From: Patescibacteria group bacterium
GTDB taxonomy: Bacteria; Patescibacteriota; Microgenomatia; 0-14-0-10-38-17
Assembly (NCBI GenBank): GCA_050947035.1
Contig: JBMNVW010000001.1
Span: 48,967 to 112,966 of the forward strand
Reading direction: 5' to 3'
Length of the DNA: 64,000 nucleotides
Under the pieces are notes generated by a model. It saw only the letters and a program-made list of their open reading frames with translations, was not told the DNA's origin and made no database searches. Numbering within the stretch: position 1 is the first letter of the stretch; every line of letters begins with the position of its first letter. A program made the translations under genes and the position numbers. Below, piece after piece: positions 53,572 through 63,935 of the stretch.

Positions 53572-53636
53572 TCTAAAGGTCCGAAGCTATTTGACCCTAA
53601 GGGTCGGTTTGGTTTTGGACCCTAAGGGTCGGATTT
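53572..53636. repeat. REP-like element, copy G (variant with duplicated inner palindrome)
   Basis: TCTAAAGGTCCGAAGCTATTTGACCCTAAGGGTCGG...GGACCCTAAGGGTCGGATTTTC; has the left arm plus two copies of GACCCTAAGGGTCGG and no right arm. Confidence 0.7.
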
Positions 53637-53677
53637 TCTTTTAATAGCCGCCCTTTATGCTATAATATTTTTTGACG

Positions 53678-53747
53678 TGCGGGGTAGTGTACGGTGGCAC
53701 GTGAGGCTCATAATCTCACAGATCAGGTTCAACTCCTGACCCCGCAA
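53678..53747 (+). tRNA. tRNA with CAT anticodon (Met elongator or Ile2-lysidine type; not initiator-like)
   Basis: Acceptor TGCGGGG/CCCCGCA, short D-arm, anticodon stem TGAGG/TCTCA with loop CTCATAA (CAT), T-arm TCAGG-TTCAACT-CCTGA, discriminator A, no encoded CCA. A TATAAT -10 lies at 53661..53666. Confidence 0.7.
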
Positions 53748-53781
53748 CACTAGTCTTTAGTCGTTAGTCATTGGTCGTTGG
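53728..53781 (+). repeat. 54-bp perfect direct repeat, copy 1 (3' 20 nt of tRNA-CAT plus 34 nt of flank)
   Basis: TTCAACTCCTGACCCCGCAACACTAGTCTTTAGTCGTTAGTCATTGGTCGTTGG. Confidence 0.9.
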
Positions 53782-53933
53782 CAATTTGAAAAGTAAATAA
53801 TTAAGGCCTATTTAAGGCTTAGGGGCTCAGGTGGTGAACCTGATAAAGGATTCCTAAATTAACGCGGCACCTTAACTAACAGTCGTGGTGTTATTACACC
53901 AACCAGCGAGGAAAGAAAAAGGAGCGTGTCGTC

Positions 53934-53987
53934 TTCAACTCCTGACCCCGCAACACTAGTCTTTAGTCGTTAGTCATTGGTCGTTGG
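53934..53987 (+). repeat. 54-bp perfect direct repeat, copy 2 (not associated with a complete tRNA)
   Basis: Identical 54-mer 206 bp downstream of copy 1; the upstream context cannot form the tRNA 5' half. Confidence 0.9.
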
Positions 53988-54014
53988 TTCCTGATACTTT
54001 TTCTCTTTCCGAAA

Positions 54015-54383
54015 ATGTATAAATTCGAAAAATTAAGGGTTTGGCAATCGGCGATGGATTTGGTAGTTGAAGTTTACAAATTCACAAAACAGCTACCCAA
54101 AGAGGAAACTTATGGCCTAAGAGACCAAATAAGAAGAGCAAGCGTTTCTATTGCTTTAAACATTGCCGAAGGGACGGGAGATAAAAGCGACAAAGAATTA
54201 ATAAGATATCTTTATTTATCTAAAAAGTCTCTTTTTGAAACAATAACCGGATTAAAGCTTACTCAAAGAATTTATCAACTAAAGCCAGAACAAATTTTAA
54301 AAAATTGCGATAACCTTGGTAGATCGCTTCAAGCTTTAATAAACTCTTTATCTAAAAGCCAAAAACTAAAGACTAACGACTAA
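54015..54383 (+). CDS. Four-helix-bundle protein (TIGR02436 / 23S rRNA intervening-sequence protein family; Avd-like)
   Basis: 122 aa, MYKFEKLRVWQSAMDLVVEVYKFTKQLPKEETYGLRDQIRRASVSIALNIAEGTG.... The family signature is unmistakable. Confidence 0.8.
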   Translation: MYKFEKLRVWQSAMDLVVEVYKFTKQLPKEETYGLRDQIRRASVSIALNIAEGTGDKSDKELIRYLYLSKKSLFETITGLKLTQRIYQLKPEQILKNCDNLGRSLQALINSLSKSQKLKTND

Positions 54384-54400
54384 AGACCAAGGACTAACCT

Positions 54401-54474
54401 GGCAGGGTAGCTCAGGTGGTTAGAGCAGGCGAATCATAACCGTCAGGTCGTCGGTTCAACTCCGACCCCTGCCA
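54401..54474 (+). tRNA. tRNA with CAT anticodon (second, distinct species)
   Basis: Acceptor GGCAGGG/CCCTGCC, D-arm GCTC-AGGTGGTTA-GAGC, anticodon stem GGCGA/CCGTC (A31.C39 mismatch) with loop ATCATAA, T-arm GTCGG-TTCAACT-CCGAC, discriminator A, followed by a T5 run. Confidence 0.7.
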
Positions 54475-54478
54475 CTTT

Positions 54479-54950: not shown

Positions 54951-55823
54951 ATGAACAGCAATCTTACTTCTTTTGACGGGGCCATAGACAAATTTTTAAC
55001 CCACCTAAAAAACGAAAATCGCTCCAGCAACACTATCATAGCATACGAAAACGACCTTAAGCAGTTGGCGGACTTTATCAGGCCCCAAAAAATTACCGAA
55101 ATCGATCAGGTCAAGACCGACCACATTAAAGCCTTTAAAAACCATCTTTTAGAAGAAAAAAAATACACCAACAAAACCGTTTCCCGCAAACTAAACTCAA
55201 TTAAATCTTTCTTCCGCTTCTTAACTAATTCTGCCGTTATTAAAAAAGACCCGGCCGACGATATTGCCCACCCAAAAATTAAACAAAAACTGCCCCGAAT
55301 TCTTTCTCCTCTAGAATACCGAGCCCTAAGAGATGTCTGCCGAGACGACTCCCGAAGTTATGCCATTATCGAGCTGATGCTTCAGGCCGGTTTACGAATT
55401 TCGGAAGTGGCCAATTTGGAAATAGCCGATATCCAAGAAGACAAAATCATCATCCGCCCTTACGAGTCTCACGATGGACGAGTAATCCCTCTTAACAAGG
55501 CCGCCAAAAGAGCGATTGAGGACTATTTGGAGGAACGACCCAAAACTAGAAAATCAAATAACTTGTTTATTACCAAAAACGGCAACCCTTTGTTAGTAAG
55601 AAACATTAGAAACAGCATTAACCGCTATTTTAAAATCGCCGAAATTACCGATGTTTATGTTAATAATTTGCGGGACACTTTTGTCGTCCAGCAATTAAAG
55701 GCCGGCGTTCCTTTAAATGTTGTCTCCCAAATTATCGGCCACAAACGAGTCTCCTCAACCGAAAAATACCTAGAACTAGTCGAAGAAAAAGAAACTGACA
55801 ACGTTAAGCTAAAAGAGCTCTAA
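54951..55823 (+). CDS. Tyrosine recombinase (XerC/XerD-like / phage-integrase family)
   Basis: 290 aa; N-terminal core-binding domain, C-terminal catalytic domain with R...HxxR...Y (IGHKRVSSTEKYLEL). Confidence 0.75.
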   Translation: MNSNLTSFDGAIDKFLTHLKNENRSSNTIIAYENDLKQLADFIRPQKITEIDQVKTDHIKAFKNHLLEEKKYTNKTVSRKLNSIKSFFRFLTNSAVIKKDPADDIAHPKIKQKLPRILSPLEYRALRDVCRDDSRSYAIIELMLQAGLRISEVANLEIADIQEDKIIIRPYESHDGRVIPLNKAAKRAIEDYLEERPKTRKSNNLFITKNGNPLLVRNIRNSINRYFKIAEITDVYVNNLRDTFVVQQLKAGVPLNVVSQIIGHKRVSSTEKYLELVEEKETDNVKLKEL

Positions 55824-56564: not shown

Positions 56565-56648
56565 ATCACCAAAAACAAACAACTGAATTGTCCAAAGTAA
56601 ATAAACCAATGGAGGATGGTAAGGACGAAACGAACACAATACCCCCAG

Positions 56649-56723
56649 TGGGTCAGGGTGGATTCGAACCACCGAACCTCGATTTTATAAGAATCGCGCT
56701 CTTACCAACTGAGCTACTGACCC
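56649..56723 (-). tRNA. tRNA-Ile (TAT anticodon, AUA-reading)
   Basis: Minus-strand sequence GGGTCAG-TA-GCTC-AGTTGGTAA-GAGC-G-CGATT-CTTATAA-AATCG-...-GGTGG-TTCGAAT-CCACC-CTGACCC-A. The anticodon loop has U33, TAT at 34-36 and A37. Confidence 0.65.
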
Positions 56724-60623: not shown

Positions 60624-63600
60624 TTACTTTTCCTGGTACCCTATTTCTTCATCGCACTTAGGACAAAATTGCCATTCACCCTTAAGGTAGCCATGAATTG
60701 GACAAATCGAAAAAGTAGGCGTAATCGAAAAATAGGGAAGCTTATAATTTTGAGAAACTTTTTTTATTAAGTTCTTAACGCTTTCGGTATCCGGCAGGCT
60801 TTCTCCTAAAAAACCATGTAAAACTGTATTATGAACAAACACCAGACAGTCCTTGCCAGCCAAATAATTATGGTTTTTCTTGGTCATCAAGTCATAGAAC
60901 AATTTGTTTTCTTTGGGCTTCAGCTTGGTTGTTCTCTTAACCCGCACCACCGGCAGTTGTCTTTTGGTTCGCCGTGATAATTGATTATTTATTCTTGAAA
61001 AATTAAAAGTATTTGTTAATCTATCGCTTATTCTCGTCATCTCATAAGCCGGAATTTTCAATCGCCAGATGTTTTTTTCATTTTTTCTCTTGGTCGGTTT
61101 TTCACTCTTGCTAATTAATATCCCGGCCAGAGTAAATATTTCTAATAAGTCGTCCGTTAATTTAGGGGAAACCGTATAATATTCAAAACTCCCGTCCCGC
61201 CTGGACAAATGTCCGTCACTATCCATTAATCCCGATAAAAATGAAAAAATATTATCGTTGCCAATTATATCTTTTACTTTCTTGGGCACCCCAACACTAT
61301 AAACCTTGCTGCCCGGCAAAAAACCCTTTTTTAGAAAAAAATCTACCGCTTCTTTCTTTGAGGTACTAACCTCCAGCAACCGATCGGATCTTTTGTCATT
61401 TTTTATAACATTAACCATACAGCCAAAATTGTCATTTAAAACTTGGGCAACTTTATTCATCGCCTCTTGATGTTCACTAAAAAACCTCAGTTTATATTTT
61501 TTAAGCTTATTACCGCCCCGATTGTCAATAAATTCTGACAGACAACCATCGCCAATATAAAAACCAATTAACCACATCAATTGATTTTCTAGCTCTCCCT
61601 TATTCGGTAAAATATTATTATTATTTTGTAAAATATAGTCTCCTTTTTTAAGTTCATCGGCCCGCCTGGTAACTACCTGATACTTGGATAGCTGGTGGTA
61701 TTTTTTTCGACAATCAGGATGATAACGCAAATGGGCGGCAAAAGCTTTAACATTTATAACCGGCTGATCACAAATCGGACATTTTTTAGCAACCCGTCTT
61801 TTTTTCATGACAAAAAATGGATGCCAATCAGAAGTAACAATATCAAGACCTCGCTCTCCTTCTATTCTTACTTTCCTCTTGCGCTCAACGTCAATTTCAA
61901 CCGCCTCCAACACTTCGTCCCACTCCGAAACCTCTTTCCCGGAATGATAACTTACCACCCGCAAAGGGCGCAATTTATTAAATTTCTCTACAATCTCCTC
62001 TATGGGCATCAACCCCTTATCGGTTAAAACTTTATTGCCTTCTTCGATACAACCTCCCGTATACTTACACTGCAACTTATCTTGCAAGTCTAGAGCTTCA
62101 AAAATATCCGTCGTATAATCAACTGGTAAATGTGAAGAATTGGTGTAATAAGGGGAGGCGCCATTTTCCTGATAATTCTTTTCGTTGGCACAAATTATTT
62201 TAGGAAATTGTTCTTTATCAAGGCGAGCAAAACGATAGGCAGTACTCTCGGCGGGGGTAGCTTCCAAATTAAACATTTCGCCTGTTTCTTGTTGATAAGC
62301 CAATAGTTTTCCTCTCATATAATCCATTATCTCAAGAGCAAAGGCTTGTCCTTCGGGATCGGCAATATTTTTACCTAAAAAATTAACCATCGCTTCATTC
62401 ATACCGTTTAAGCCGATCGTATTAAAATGGTTGCGCCAATAAACTTTGTTGCGCTTTTTTATGTCTTGTAAATAATGACGACAATAGGGGTAAAGCCCTT
62501 TTTCGGTAAATTCTTCTACGGTTTCTCTTTTGATCATCAAAGAATCTTTAGCCAAATCCATTAAGTGCCCAAGAAGAGTAAAAAACTTTCTTTTAGCAAA
62601 CCCTGGTGTCTTGGAATTAGTCTTAGCCAAATAACCAATTCGAGGTAAATTAATGGTTACCACCCCCAAAGAGCCAGTTAAGGGGTTAGCAGAAAAAAGA
62701 CCACCTCTTCGGCGCAATTCCCGATTATCCAAACGAAGTCGGCAGCACATACTCCGGGCATCATCTGGGTCCATATCAGAATTAACAAAATTAGAAAAGT
62801 AAGGAATACCGTATTTTCTAGTCATCTCCCAAACCGGCTCTAAGTTTTTATTATCCCAATCAAAATCTTTGGTAATTGAATAGGTGGGGATTGGGAAAGT
62901 AAAGACTCGGCCTTGAGCATCACCTTCCATCATATTTTCGGCAAAAGACCGATTGATCATGTCCATCTCTTTTTGGAAATCCTTATACTTGTCTTTCGTT
63001 GGCTTTCCGCCGATAATAACCATCTCTTCTCCCACCATCTTGGTTGGGTGAATATCTAGGGAAATATTAGAAAAAGGGGTTTGAAATCCGACCCGAGTAG
63101 GAACGTTCATATTAAAAACAAATTCCTGAAGGGCTTGCTTAGTCTGCTTATAAGTCAGACCATCATAGCGAACAAACGGGGCCAGGTAAGTATCAAAATT
63201 GGAAATGGCTACCGCCCCGGCCACTTCCCCCTGAATGGTATACATAAAATTAACAATTTGGCCCAAGGCGGAAGAAAAATGCTTGGGGGGGGCGCTATTA
63301 ACCTTACCGGAAACACCACCAAAACCCTTAGCCAAAAAATCTTTTAAATCCCAACCGGTACAATAAGCCGAAAGAGAAGACAGGTCATGAATATGAAGAT
63401 CACCCTGGCGATGAGCTTTTCTTATTTCCCGAGAATAAATTTTATTAAGCCAAAAGTTAGCCGAAATAATGCTAGCCACATGGTTATTTAAGCCCTGCAA
63501 AGAATAAGTCATGTTGGCATTTTCCTTCACTCGCCAATCACCTTGATTTAAATATTTTTCCGTTAGCTCATCAGCATCCACCAAACTACTAACACTTCTT

Positions 63601-63935
63601 AATTTATGGTGAAGTTGACGATAAAGGGTATAGGCGTTATGAACCTCGTCGTGGGAATGTTTAAGCAAGGTTTGCTCGACAATATCCTGAACTTGTTCGA
63701 CTTCGGGAACAATCGAAGAATTAAAGCGCTTTTCTAGTTCTGAAATCACCTCTTTGGCTAATCGACGAACCTCTTGGGCATCATCTTTACCGGCGGCTTT
63801 AAAAGCAGACTTAATCGCCCGGGCAATTTTGCTTGGGCTAAAGGCAACTACTCGACCGTTTCTTTTTTTTATCTTGGCAATTTTTGATTTTATTGCTTTT
63901 CTGGCCATCAATAACACCCTAAAAACCCTCTTCAA
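60624..63935 (-). CDS. nrdD: Anaerobic ribonucleoside-triphosphate reductase (class III) with ATP-cone, containing an intein; ORF ends just after the zinc ribbon, before the glycyl-radical motif
   Basis: 1103-aa ORF. ATP-cone N-terminus (KIKKRNGRVVAFSPSKIARAI), NrdD core, KYTGG|[intein]|TVLHGFLGE, and a C-terminal CPIHG...CPKC zinc ribbon, then stop. The likely start is Met10 (63908). Confidence 0.9.
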   Translation of the reverse strand: MKRVFRVLLMARKAIKSKIAKIKKRNGRVVAFSPSKIARAIKSAFKAAGKDDAQEVRRLAKEVISELEKRFNSSIVPEVEQVQDIVEQTLLKHSHDEVHNAYTLYRQLHHKLRSVSSLVDADELTEKYLNQGDWRVKENANMTYSLQGLNNHVASIISANFWLNKIYSREIRKAHRQGDLHIHDLSSLSAYCTGWDLKDFLAKGFGGVSGKVNSAPPKHFSSALGQIVNFMYTIQGEVAGAVAISNFDTYLAPFVRYDGLTYKQTKQALQEFVFNMNVPTRVGFQTPFSNISLDIHPTKMVGEEMVIIGGKPTKDKYKDFQKEMDMINRSFAENMMEGDAQGRVFTFPIPTYSITKDFDWDNKNLEPVWEMTRKYGIPYFSNFVNSDMDPDDARSMCCRLRLDNRELRRRGGLFSANPLTGSLGVVTINLPRIGYLAKTNSKTPGFAKRKFFTLLGHLMDLAKDSLMIKRETVEEFTEKGLYPYCRHYLQDIKKRNKVYWRNHFNTIGLNGMNEAMVNFLGKNIADPEGQAFALEIMDYMRGKLLAYQQETGEMFNLEATPAESTAYRFARLDKEQFPKIICANEKNYQENGASPYYTNSSHLPVDYTTDIFEALDLQDKLQCKYTGGCIEEGNKVLTDKGLMPIEEIVEKFNKLRPLRVVSYHSGKEVSEWDEVLEAVEIDVERKRKVRIEGERGLDIVTSDWHPFFVMKKRRVAKKCPICDQPVINVKAFAAHLRYHPDCRKKYHQLSKYQVVTRRADELKKGDYILQNNNNILPNKGELENQLMWLIGFYIGDGCLSEFIDNRGGNKLKKYKLRFFSEHQEAMNKVAQVLNDNFGCMVNVIKNDKRSDRLLEVSTSKKEAVDFFLKKGFLPGSKVYSVGVPKKVKDIIGNDNIFSFLSGLMDSDGHLSRRDGSFEYYTVSPKLTDDLLEIFTLAGILISKSEKPTKRKNEKNIWRLKIPAYEMTRISDRLTNTFNFSRINNQLSRRTKRQLPVVRVKRTTKLKPKENKLFYDLMTKKNHNYLAGKDCLVFVHNTVLHGFLGESLPDTESVKNLIKKVSQNYKLPYFSITPTFSICPIHGYLKGEWQFCPKCDEEIGYQEK
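60828..62051 (-). mobile_element. Intein (408 aa) with LAGLIDADG homing-endonuclease domain inserted in NrdD after KYTGG
   Basis: Begins with Cys (CIEEGNKVL) and ends VFVHN followed by the +1 Thr; LAGLIDADG blocks LIGFYIGDGCL and FLSGLMDSDGHL; internal CPICD...HPDC zinc knuckle. Removing it restores the conserved NrdD motif KYTGGTVLHGFLGE. Confidence 0.85.

Follow-up and report, generated by a model that had tools for sequence, protein, structure and literature searches.

Direct repeats of a tRNA 3' end are routinely taken as scars left by integrases, and the locus described here raises the question of what such a repeat marks when it encloses only a tiny, gene-less segment. The repeat lies in a 64,000-nucleotide stretch of Patescibacteria DNA (contig JBMNVW010000001.1, positions 48,967–112,966; hereafter the window), whose matching public contigs are metagenome-assembled genomes of Candidatus Shapirobacteria, Candidate Phyla Radiation (CPR). 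It surrounds a segment that we call module S, which follows directly behind an intact tRNA-Met gene (tRNA1), spans approximately 53749–53954 and comprises a spacer followed by the last 21 nt of the tRNA, duplicated exactly. We lean towards the reading that the repeat is the pair of copies bounding a selected, co-transcribed RNA module without an open reading frame (ORF), located behind tRNA-Met in Shapirobacteria, which would make S a candidate new non-coding element in these little-known bacteria.

The repeat and the conservation of module S

The preliminary description of this stretch reported a perfect 54-bp direct repeat that starts at the T-loop of a tRNA-CAT and whose copies are 152 bp apart, and this is what we find: 53728–53781 and 53934–53987 are identical (100%, repeat family D1), with 206 nt from start to start, 152 nt in between and a flank beyond the tRNA that measures 33 nt. 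Copy 1 begins with the first T-loop base of tRNA-Met(CAT) and extends 33 nt beyond the gene as four heptads (AGTCTTT, AGTCGTT, AGTCATT and GGTCGTT) plus GG, and copy 2 was correctly described as lacking a tRNA 5' half. The flank 17-mer GTCTTTAGTCGTTAGTC also occurs in inverted orientation at 54371–54387, at the stop codon of the downstream four-helix-bundle (4HB) gene, again as described. The 21-nt tRNA part has only two occurrences in the 64-kb window with up to three mismatches allowed (chance expectation 0.01), and a larger island bounded by a third copy was rejected on these grounds. The parts concerned are:

53678..53748 (end 53747/8), + strand: intact tRNA-Met(CAT), tRNA1, no encoded CCA (ARAGORN; Rfam RF00005, 52.3 bits)
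53728..53781, + strand: repeat copy 1, tRNA1 from the T-loop to the 3' end (21 nt) plus the 33-nt flank of AGTCNTT heptads
53782..53933, + strand: unique S spacer, ORF-less and conserved in five lineages (alignments)
53934..53987, + strand: repeat copy 2, no tRNA 5' half (repeat finding)
53934..53954, + strand: 3' fragment of tRNA1 of the displaced type, TTCAACTCCTGACCCCGCAAC, the ancient core of the repeat and 3' strand of the predicted helix P1

That the repeat is an assembly artefact, whether from duplication or collapse at a contig end or from a chimera of co-occurring species, is scarcely credible. L003, a further assembly of this strain (Logan, k=31, identical to the window), begins with the last 30 nt of the repeat and continues into the 4HB gene; a break exactly k-1 nt into the repeat is expected where the assembly graph branches at a genuine repeat of at least 31 nt. 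The two-copy architecture is also present in independent NCBI, JGI, ENA and Logan assemblies, and L023, a 152-kb contig from a sister strain with 98% identity over 5.5 kb, contains the tRNA part twice, with a spacer identical to that of the window. Also, the window-type heptads and the L001-type cassette described below have only 11 nt in common at their junction, and since this overlap is too short and L003 reproduces the junction, a de Bruijn mis-join is unlikely. The independent assemblies and the k-1 overlap thus led us to reject the artefact, which the preliminary description had named as the finding that would undo it. On the other side, L014 has a scaffold gap between its copies, and two contigs, L004 and L005, appear to combine different genomes at tRNA sequences. 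From tRNA2, the second CAT tRNA of the operon, rightwards, L004 matches L027 with 100% identity; to the left the identity is 70% and L004 is L001-like, the switch lying inside tRNA2. In L005 the change from a distant genome to an L001-type cassette falls within tRNA1. Both are probably chimeras formed at conserved tRNAs, or alternatively real recombinants, and they were set aside and not counted as evidence of mobility. Such repeats are a warning for assembly, as contigs can be broken or mis-joined at them.

Loci for comparison were sought with the 21-mer in JGI metagenomes and in a genome set with one representative per species, as well as through homologues of the neighbouring Xer-like recombinase (95% to 63% identity); the window, the L001 clade and L026 were found without the fragment as search pattern, and counts of gain and loss rest on about 15 lineages. 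Module S is present in at least five Candidatus Shapirobacteria lineages, in each case behind the same tRNA and with a homologous spacer of 110–189 nt and the exact 21-nt fragment, the start-to-start spacing being 206 nt in the window and L023, 210 in L026, 204 in the L001 clade, 139 in L021 and 131 in L024. The fragment matches at 21 of 21 positions in all of these and in L014, where two copies surround a 100-N scaffold gap and are followed by a GIY-YIG gene. S is accompanied by the 4HB cassette in the window, L023, L026 and the L001 clade, and occurs without 4HB gene or heptads in L021 and L024. Conversely, the cassette directly follows tRNA1 without any duplication in L029/L030 and L038, so the duplication is independent of the cassette. 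L034/L035, whose Xer is 95% identical to that of the window, have only a GIY-YIG gene, and L009, L015, L027, L028 and L036 have a plain, empty arrangement of tRNA1, 47–263 nt and tRNA2. S is therefore present or absent as a discrete unit, and three independent modules (S, 4HB and GIY-YIG) use the tRNA1–tRNA2 spacer. The empty and GIY-YIG-only sites lie phylogenetically among the S-bearing genomes (Xer identities from 95% to 53%), empty sites being seen between species only. No second copy of S was found in the 64-kb window or in 39 loci, and no similar duplication lies behind any other of the 79 tRNAs of the window and all loci.

With the spacer as query, nhmmer gave matches (E 1e-20 to 1e-31) only at the orthologous position in relatives. 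Between the window and S-bearing relatives, identity at four-fold degenerate sites of ftsH and xer is 0.31–0.63, which is essentially saturation, and intergenic DNA upstream of tRNA1 is 0.55–0.63 identical, whereas the S core is 0.72–0.92 identical to that of the window at aligned positions. Conservation of the S core next to saturated four-fold sites indicates an old duplication. S-core identity follows host-gene identity in 10 of 10 pairwise comparisons. On the sequence comparison, S appears to be vertically inherited under purifying selection, unlike a neutral scar or a recently spreading element. Hence, the earlier suggestion that exact identity over 54 bp implies a recent event holds for the 33-nt flank but not for the 21-nt core and the spacer, which are common to lineages with saturated synonymous sites. 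Comparison of orthologous loci, which had been proposed as a check, revealed an old S in five lineages, S-less sites in relatives and a cassette swapped relative to L023.

A tyrosine integrase acting in the tRNA-Met T-loop would leave a similar picture, with copy 1 as attL, copy 2 as attR and the 152 nt as a deletion remnant, a neutral relic in which the copies are kept alike by gene conversion; we regard this as unlikely. tDNA islands are typically recognised by an intact tRNA accompanied by a direct copy of its 3' part (PMC4383910), and the identity block starts, in all five lineages, exactly at the T-loop, a recognised crossover sublocation (10.1101/2020.11.02.365908; PMC1762012). Relatives have empty sites, L021 contains a partial second unit as expected from tandem accretion, and fragments of the same tRNA in L010 and L019 start in the anticodon loop, which suggests that tRNA-Met is probably used as attB in CPR. 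However, there is no ORF between the repeats, the sole nearby recombinase lies outside them and is syntenic in S-less genomes, and neither the 21-mer nor the spacer motifs occur in any IMG/VR contig. In addition, conservation of the spacer interior far exceeds that of four-fold sites, which is not expected of a neutral relic, and conversion from the tRNA would be unable to preserve this unique interior. An integrase event may well be how S arose, but it fails as a description of the present state. The L010 and L019 pieces (L010:417-457; L019:2677-2720, - strand) have no 5' half and resemble the ends of genuine integrated elements. The IMG/VR search, made with the 21-mer and two spacer motifs for an attP on a phage, plasmid or integrative and conjugative element (ICE), gave no match, nor did a search with the 4HB protein, and a phage or plasmid origin was rejected because fragment, motifs and protein were all without a match.

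About equally improbable is that S is a non-autonomous miniature element, similar to a cis-mobilizable element (CIME) or a miniature inverted-repeat transposable element and with arms resembling terminal inverted repeats (GGGG.TCAGG..TGAA / TTCA..CCTGACCCC), which a recombinase acting in trans inserts at the tRNA-Met T-loop, each time duplicating the sequence from the T-loop into the flank. A patchy distribution among close relatives and the occurrence of S in three downstream contexts (4HB, GIY-YIG and native spacer) are consistent with such an element. The length of local flank included in the repeat also varies, being 33 nt in the window, about 12 nt in L021 and 3 nt in L024, and the S cores of the window and L026 are more alike than the host genes. 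Divergence of S otherwise follows that of the host, though, and the module is confined to one copy per locus and to one of the scanned tRNAs; furthermore, no candidate mobilising enzyme is specific to S-bearing genomes. We therefore return to S as a maintained module, for which the question becomes what is being maintained.

Predicted RNA fold and possible role of module S

The elements on which a transcript and its fold would depend are:

53658..53666, + strand: extended -10-like box TGCTATAAT, approximately 11 nt upstream of tRNA-Met1 (sequence reading)
53822..53844, + strand: antisense box GGGGCTCAGGTGGTGAACCTGAT (inverted repeat I3, 22 nt, 86% complementary), predicted 5' strand of P1
53864..53870, + strand: predicted 5' strand of P2, GCGGCAC (RNAalifold consensus)
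53887..53900, + strand: predicted P3 hairpin, GGTGT-TATT-ACACC, nearly invariant in four of five lineages
53926..53933, + strand: predicted 3' strand of P2, GTGTCGTC (consensus fold), directly abutting the tRNA fragment

The ATGCTATAAT box is kept in L001, L004, L021 and L026, and its conservation about 11 nt upstream of tRNA1 in relatives makes co-transcription of S with the tRNAs likely. A promoter scan of the region around 53658–53666 did not find a full -35/-10 pair; the -10-like box is nevertheless likely to be the promoter of a tRNA1-S-4HB-tRNA2 transcript. Within S, the antisense box is an inverted, imperfect copy of tRNA1 positions ~48-70, which correspond to the T-arm and the 3' strand of the acceptor. 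It is predicted to form the closing helix P1 with the downstream fragment (9 bp plus UGAA/UUCA), and the other two predicted helices are P2 (GCGGCAC / GUGUCGUC) and P3 (GGUGU-UAUU-ACACC).

In the consensus structure of the five S variants 92% of cells are paired, compared with 37–49% in slid controls, and double changes occur at two pairs; for helix 4, in the P2 region, the value is 94%, with one double change from C-G to U-A. Pairing between box and fragment is kept in all five variants, the box varying only between C and U opposite G and between A and G opposite U. G-U combinations are present in eight columns and A-C combinations in two; this bias is in keeping with an RNA transcribed from the + strand, on which the tRNAs also lie. 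L021 has a mutated local partner of the box (CCUAA) and retains the pairing with the fragment, a pattern that favours the long-range helix and disfavours a conserved DNA dyad. Taken together, the RNA-level evidence for the predicted S fold is modest.

Several other identities were tried for the spacer and rejected. A coding spacer is contradicted by stops in all frames, and no ORF of at least 50 aa is present in 53782–53933; the remaining GTG-initiated micro-ORF merely reads through the conserved fragment. This micro-ORF (VSSSTPDPAT..., window 53926-53973) is found with variable C-termini in all five S variants and is probably a by-product of fragment conservation. A search of Rfam 15 with S from three lineages (the window, L021 and L024; E up to 10) returned nothing credible, the tRNAs being the sole matches, and a known RNA family was thus rejected. 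A T-box leader was dismissed as well, as the GGGUGGU motif of four lineages is deleted in L024 and there was no match to RF00230. The S interior was also considered as the decayed, inverted rest of tRNA1 and its promoter, but the alignment score was reached by 243 of 500 shuffles. Finally, a conserved recombinase dyad or dif site was rejected for the box, since L021 has an interrupted dyad (TCGGG..CCTAA) and relatives that keep Xer are without S.

Based on these observations, we hypothesize that S is transcribed together with the tRNAs from the box at 53658–53666 and folds on itself, with P1 formed between the antisense box and the duplicated tRNA end. This pairing would keep the antisense box off the real tRNA, and S would be removed by the nucleases that normally process tRNAs. 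Selection on the fold, together with gene conversion from the tRNA gene, may hold the 21-nt copy identical, and recombination between the copies could remove S precisely and repeatedly, which would explain the clean empty sites; a deletion of this kind would join tRNA1 directly to TTCCTGATAC. S may act in processing or insulating the tRNA transcript, or may mimic the acceptor/T-arm helix of the tRNA. More tentatively, and at less than even odds in our judgement, S could represent an undescribed family of structured RNAs of Shapirobacteria, 110–190 nt long and co-transcribed with tRNA-Met, with a closing helix formed by the antisense box and an exact mimic of the tRNA end. Such a family might be selected for processing of the tRNA operon, or as a decoy or platform for enzymes, and for selfish cassettes (4HB, GIY-YIG), docking at the 3' end of the tRNA.

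Several points weigh against this account of S. Only five distinct S sequences are available and the supporting changes are mostly one-sided wobble; the covariation score was reached by 22 of 500 shuffles, and the fold energies are unexceptional (z-scores of -0.2 to -2.5). Gene conversion alone could account for the perfect conservation of the fragment. The S cores of the window and L026 are 0.92 identical compared with 0.80 for the genes, so some lateral movement of S is possible, and S may have arisen through an integrase or through template switching. Also, the chimeric look of L004 and L005 means that assemblies can mis-join at these tRNAs.

A second mimic of a tRNA end is found in the operon. 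It is a hairpin in the tRNA2 leader, GGCAGGCTTGCCTGCC, which copies the tRNA2 acceptor stem and lies upstream of tRNA2 at cassette-free sites (L027:2825-2860, and L021, L034 and L036).

The 4HB cassette, the recent flank identity and the surrounding operon

The features downstream of S are:

53955..53987, + strand: left arm of the cassette stem, heptads, forming a predicted duplex with 54359-54399 (-41.7 kcal/mol)
54015..54383, + strand: 4HB gene, 122 aa, 23S_rRNA_IVP PF05635 (Pfam 110.7 bits, E 5e-32, cut-off 33.8)
54359..54399, + strand: right arm of the cassette stem, inverted heptads, overlapping the 4HB stop codon and ending 1 nt before tRNA2
54401..54475, + strand: second CAT-anticodon tRNA, tRNA2 (ARAGORN; Rfam 58 bits)
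54951..55823, + strand: Xer-like tyrosine recombinase (Pfam PF00589/PF02899), context outside the element

All 4HB alleles checked (window, L023, L001, L026, L020 and L038) have heptad arms that can form an imperfect duplex of 30–40 bp. In these six alleles the duplexes reach -37 to -46 kcal/mol despite differing arm sequences, and they also appear in the fold of the full region. The cassette takes over the entire tRNA1–tRNA2 spacer, to within 1–3 nt of both tRNAs. Cassettes were noted in the window (53955–54400), L001/L002/L004–L008, L020, L023, L026, L029 and L038.

Comparison of the window with L023 reveals 114 differences in about 5,540 positions, 53 of which fall into the 53900–54399 bins; the cluster begins just after the tRNA fragment and spans the heptads and the 4HB gene, while spacer and tRNA1 are identical. 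The ~440-nt cassette of the window is about 12% different from the allele of its 98%-identical sister strain. Starting at about 53988, across the 4HB gene and on into tRNA2, the window is base-for-base identical to the L001 clade, whose flanking genes are 72–80% identical to those of the window and saturated at synonymous sites. An identical cassette between flanks of 72–80% identity, together with the different allele of L023, points to lateral exchange after the two strains had split. On this comparison, the locus indicates a very recent inter-species transfer of a ~440-nt cassette resembling intervening sequences (IVS) within a tRNA operon.

The left arm departs from this picture. The donor type is ATTAGTCGTTAGTCTTTAGTCCTTGGTCGTTGG and the window has ACTAGTCTTTAGTCGTTAGTCATTGGTCGTTGG, which is exactly the copy 1 flank common to the window and L023; L023 itself has another arm in copy 2. 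The window arm differs at four positions from the otherwise identical L001 cassette, and four differences in 21 nt beside ~470 nt without any exclude point mutation. The simplest account would be a short gene-conversion tract from copy 1 to copy 2, which made the 54-nt identity. The tract could have been seeded in the identical tRNA block and have ended at the common GGTCGTTGG. We therefore propose the following order: the cassette was replaced laterally by an allele from another species, and the left arm was then overwritten from copy 1, by which a 21-nt repeat would have become one of 54 nt. L023, with the same copy 1, a different copy 2 flank and a repeat of only ~21 nt, fits this order, and gene conversion, one of the options raised in the preliminary description, thus best explains the identity of the 33-nt flank. 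Only the outer 33 nt appear to have become identical recently, the 21-nt core being old.

The other events considered in that description, a fresh integration or excision or a partial tandem duplication, would place the whole repeat in the recent history of the window genome alone, and we consider this very improbable. The perfect 54-nt identity, and a sister strain without perfect flank identity, are what such an event would predict. However, the duplication and the spacer are identical in the sister strain and present in distant relatives, and the recent change is limited to the 33-nt flank. For a fresh integrase footprint there is neither an ORF between the copies nor a viral contig with the site in IMG/VR, and the Xer-like gene is syntenic where the repeat is absent; a tandem origin is at odds with the 152 nt of unique, conserved sequence between the copies.

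GIY-YIG genes (91–95 aa) occupy the tRNA1–tRNA2 spacer instead of 4HB in L014:360-880, L034:1640-2400, L035 and L031:1836-2099. In L014, the tRNA1 fragment and tRNA2 are each followed by a hairpin of ~50 nt, TGAGGTTAT..CCAACCTCA. Short modules of the form GGTGTGAACG.AG.GAACATAAT are repeated downstream of tRNA2 or around GIY-YIG genes (L026:2893-2915, L034:1734-1756, L035:331-353); none is present in the window.

The neighbouring genes are ftsH (- strand), a DivIC-like gene (- strand) and the Xer-like recombinase gene (+ strand). The order ftsH, tRNA1 ... tRNA2, divIC, xer is conserved among relatives, and the Xer-like gene is syntenic in those with S and in those without. The interval between ftsH and tRNA1 (window 53590-53635) contains two GACCCTAAGGGTC hairpins in tandem, with T-runs, and relatives have a longer palindrome, GGTCCGAAGCTATCCGAC...GTCGGATAGCTTCGGACC, at this site. 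Besides the two CAT tRNAs there is a tRNA-Ile with anticodon TAT (window 56648-56723, - strand, 68.7 bits), the position of which is conserved in relatives; no rRNA was detected in the window by tRNA and Rfam scans. Further away, the anaerobic ribonucleotide reductase NrdD (window 60624-63908, - strand) has 1094 aa with intein and LAGLIDADG hits, and its L001 orthologue has 686 aa.

Comparison with known systems

A regenerated tRNA with a displaced 3' fragment is how the ends of tDNA-integrated islands and prophages are defined in Islander (PMC4383910). The T-loop is a recognised crossover sublocation, the others being the anticodon loop and the 3' end (10.1101/2020.11.02.365908; PMC1762012). 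The locus resembles such islands in having an intact tRNA followed by a direct 3' copy, a start at the T-loop and an uninterrupted site in relatives. In contrast to them, the DNA between the copies measures 110–189 nt with no integrase or other ORF, appears to be under purifying selection and contains an antisense copy of the duplicated tRNA segment, and no free or viral form of S was found in IMG/VR. Repeats of tRNA fragments in CPR genomes therefore need not mark islands, which is a warning for annotation.

CIMEs, known from work on Streptococcus ICEs, are att-flanked remnants of integrative elements without recombination genes. Module S is similar in that short att-like direct repeats surround an integrase-less segment, and the partial second unit of L021 resembles accretion. 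It is, however, some ten to a hundred times smaller and without a known parental element, and its mobilisation is only putative.

In integrative mobile elements exploiting Xer (IMEX) of the CTX-phi type, the attachment region has two inverted dif-like sites ~90 nt apart beside a direct hybrid site. A site, an inverted site, ~80-95 nt, a direct site and an adjoining Xer-type recombinase gene are likewise found here. In contrast to CTX-phi, the inverted dyad is not conserved (L021), the fragment has only a half-site, there is no phage genome, and relatives with the same Xer gene are without S. A simple tandem duplication differs from the locus in that it would not place 152 nt of unique, conserved spacer between the copies.

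For the 4HB cassette, the closest counterparts are the IVS of 23S rRNA, which encode S23p/23S_rRNA_IVP and are excised by RNase III, as in the Coxiella IVS (PMC4990558). Insertions in CPR rRNA genes also encode 23S_rRNA_IVP or GIY-YIG proteins (PMC11270868). The cassette differs from these in lying between two tRNA genes rather than in a helix of 23S or 16S rRNA, and its stem arms consist of 7-nt AGTCNTT repeats. Like an IVS, it contains a PF05635 ORF of ~120 aa in a unit of ~440 nt closed by a long terminal stem, resides in a stable-RNA operon and has GIY-YIG as alternative cargo. It is also sporadic and laterally transferred, being absent from close relatives, swapped between sister strains and identical across genomes of 72–80% identity. 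The locus shows that the enigmatic 23S_rRNA_IVP 4HB genes, known from rRNA IVS, also colonise a tRNA operon as cassettes closed by a stem, with very recent movement between species, and the filled, empty and swapped sites provide a comparable set for asking how such cassettes move.

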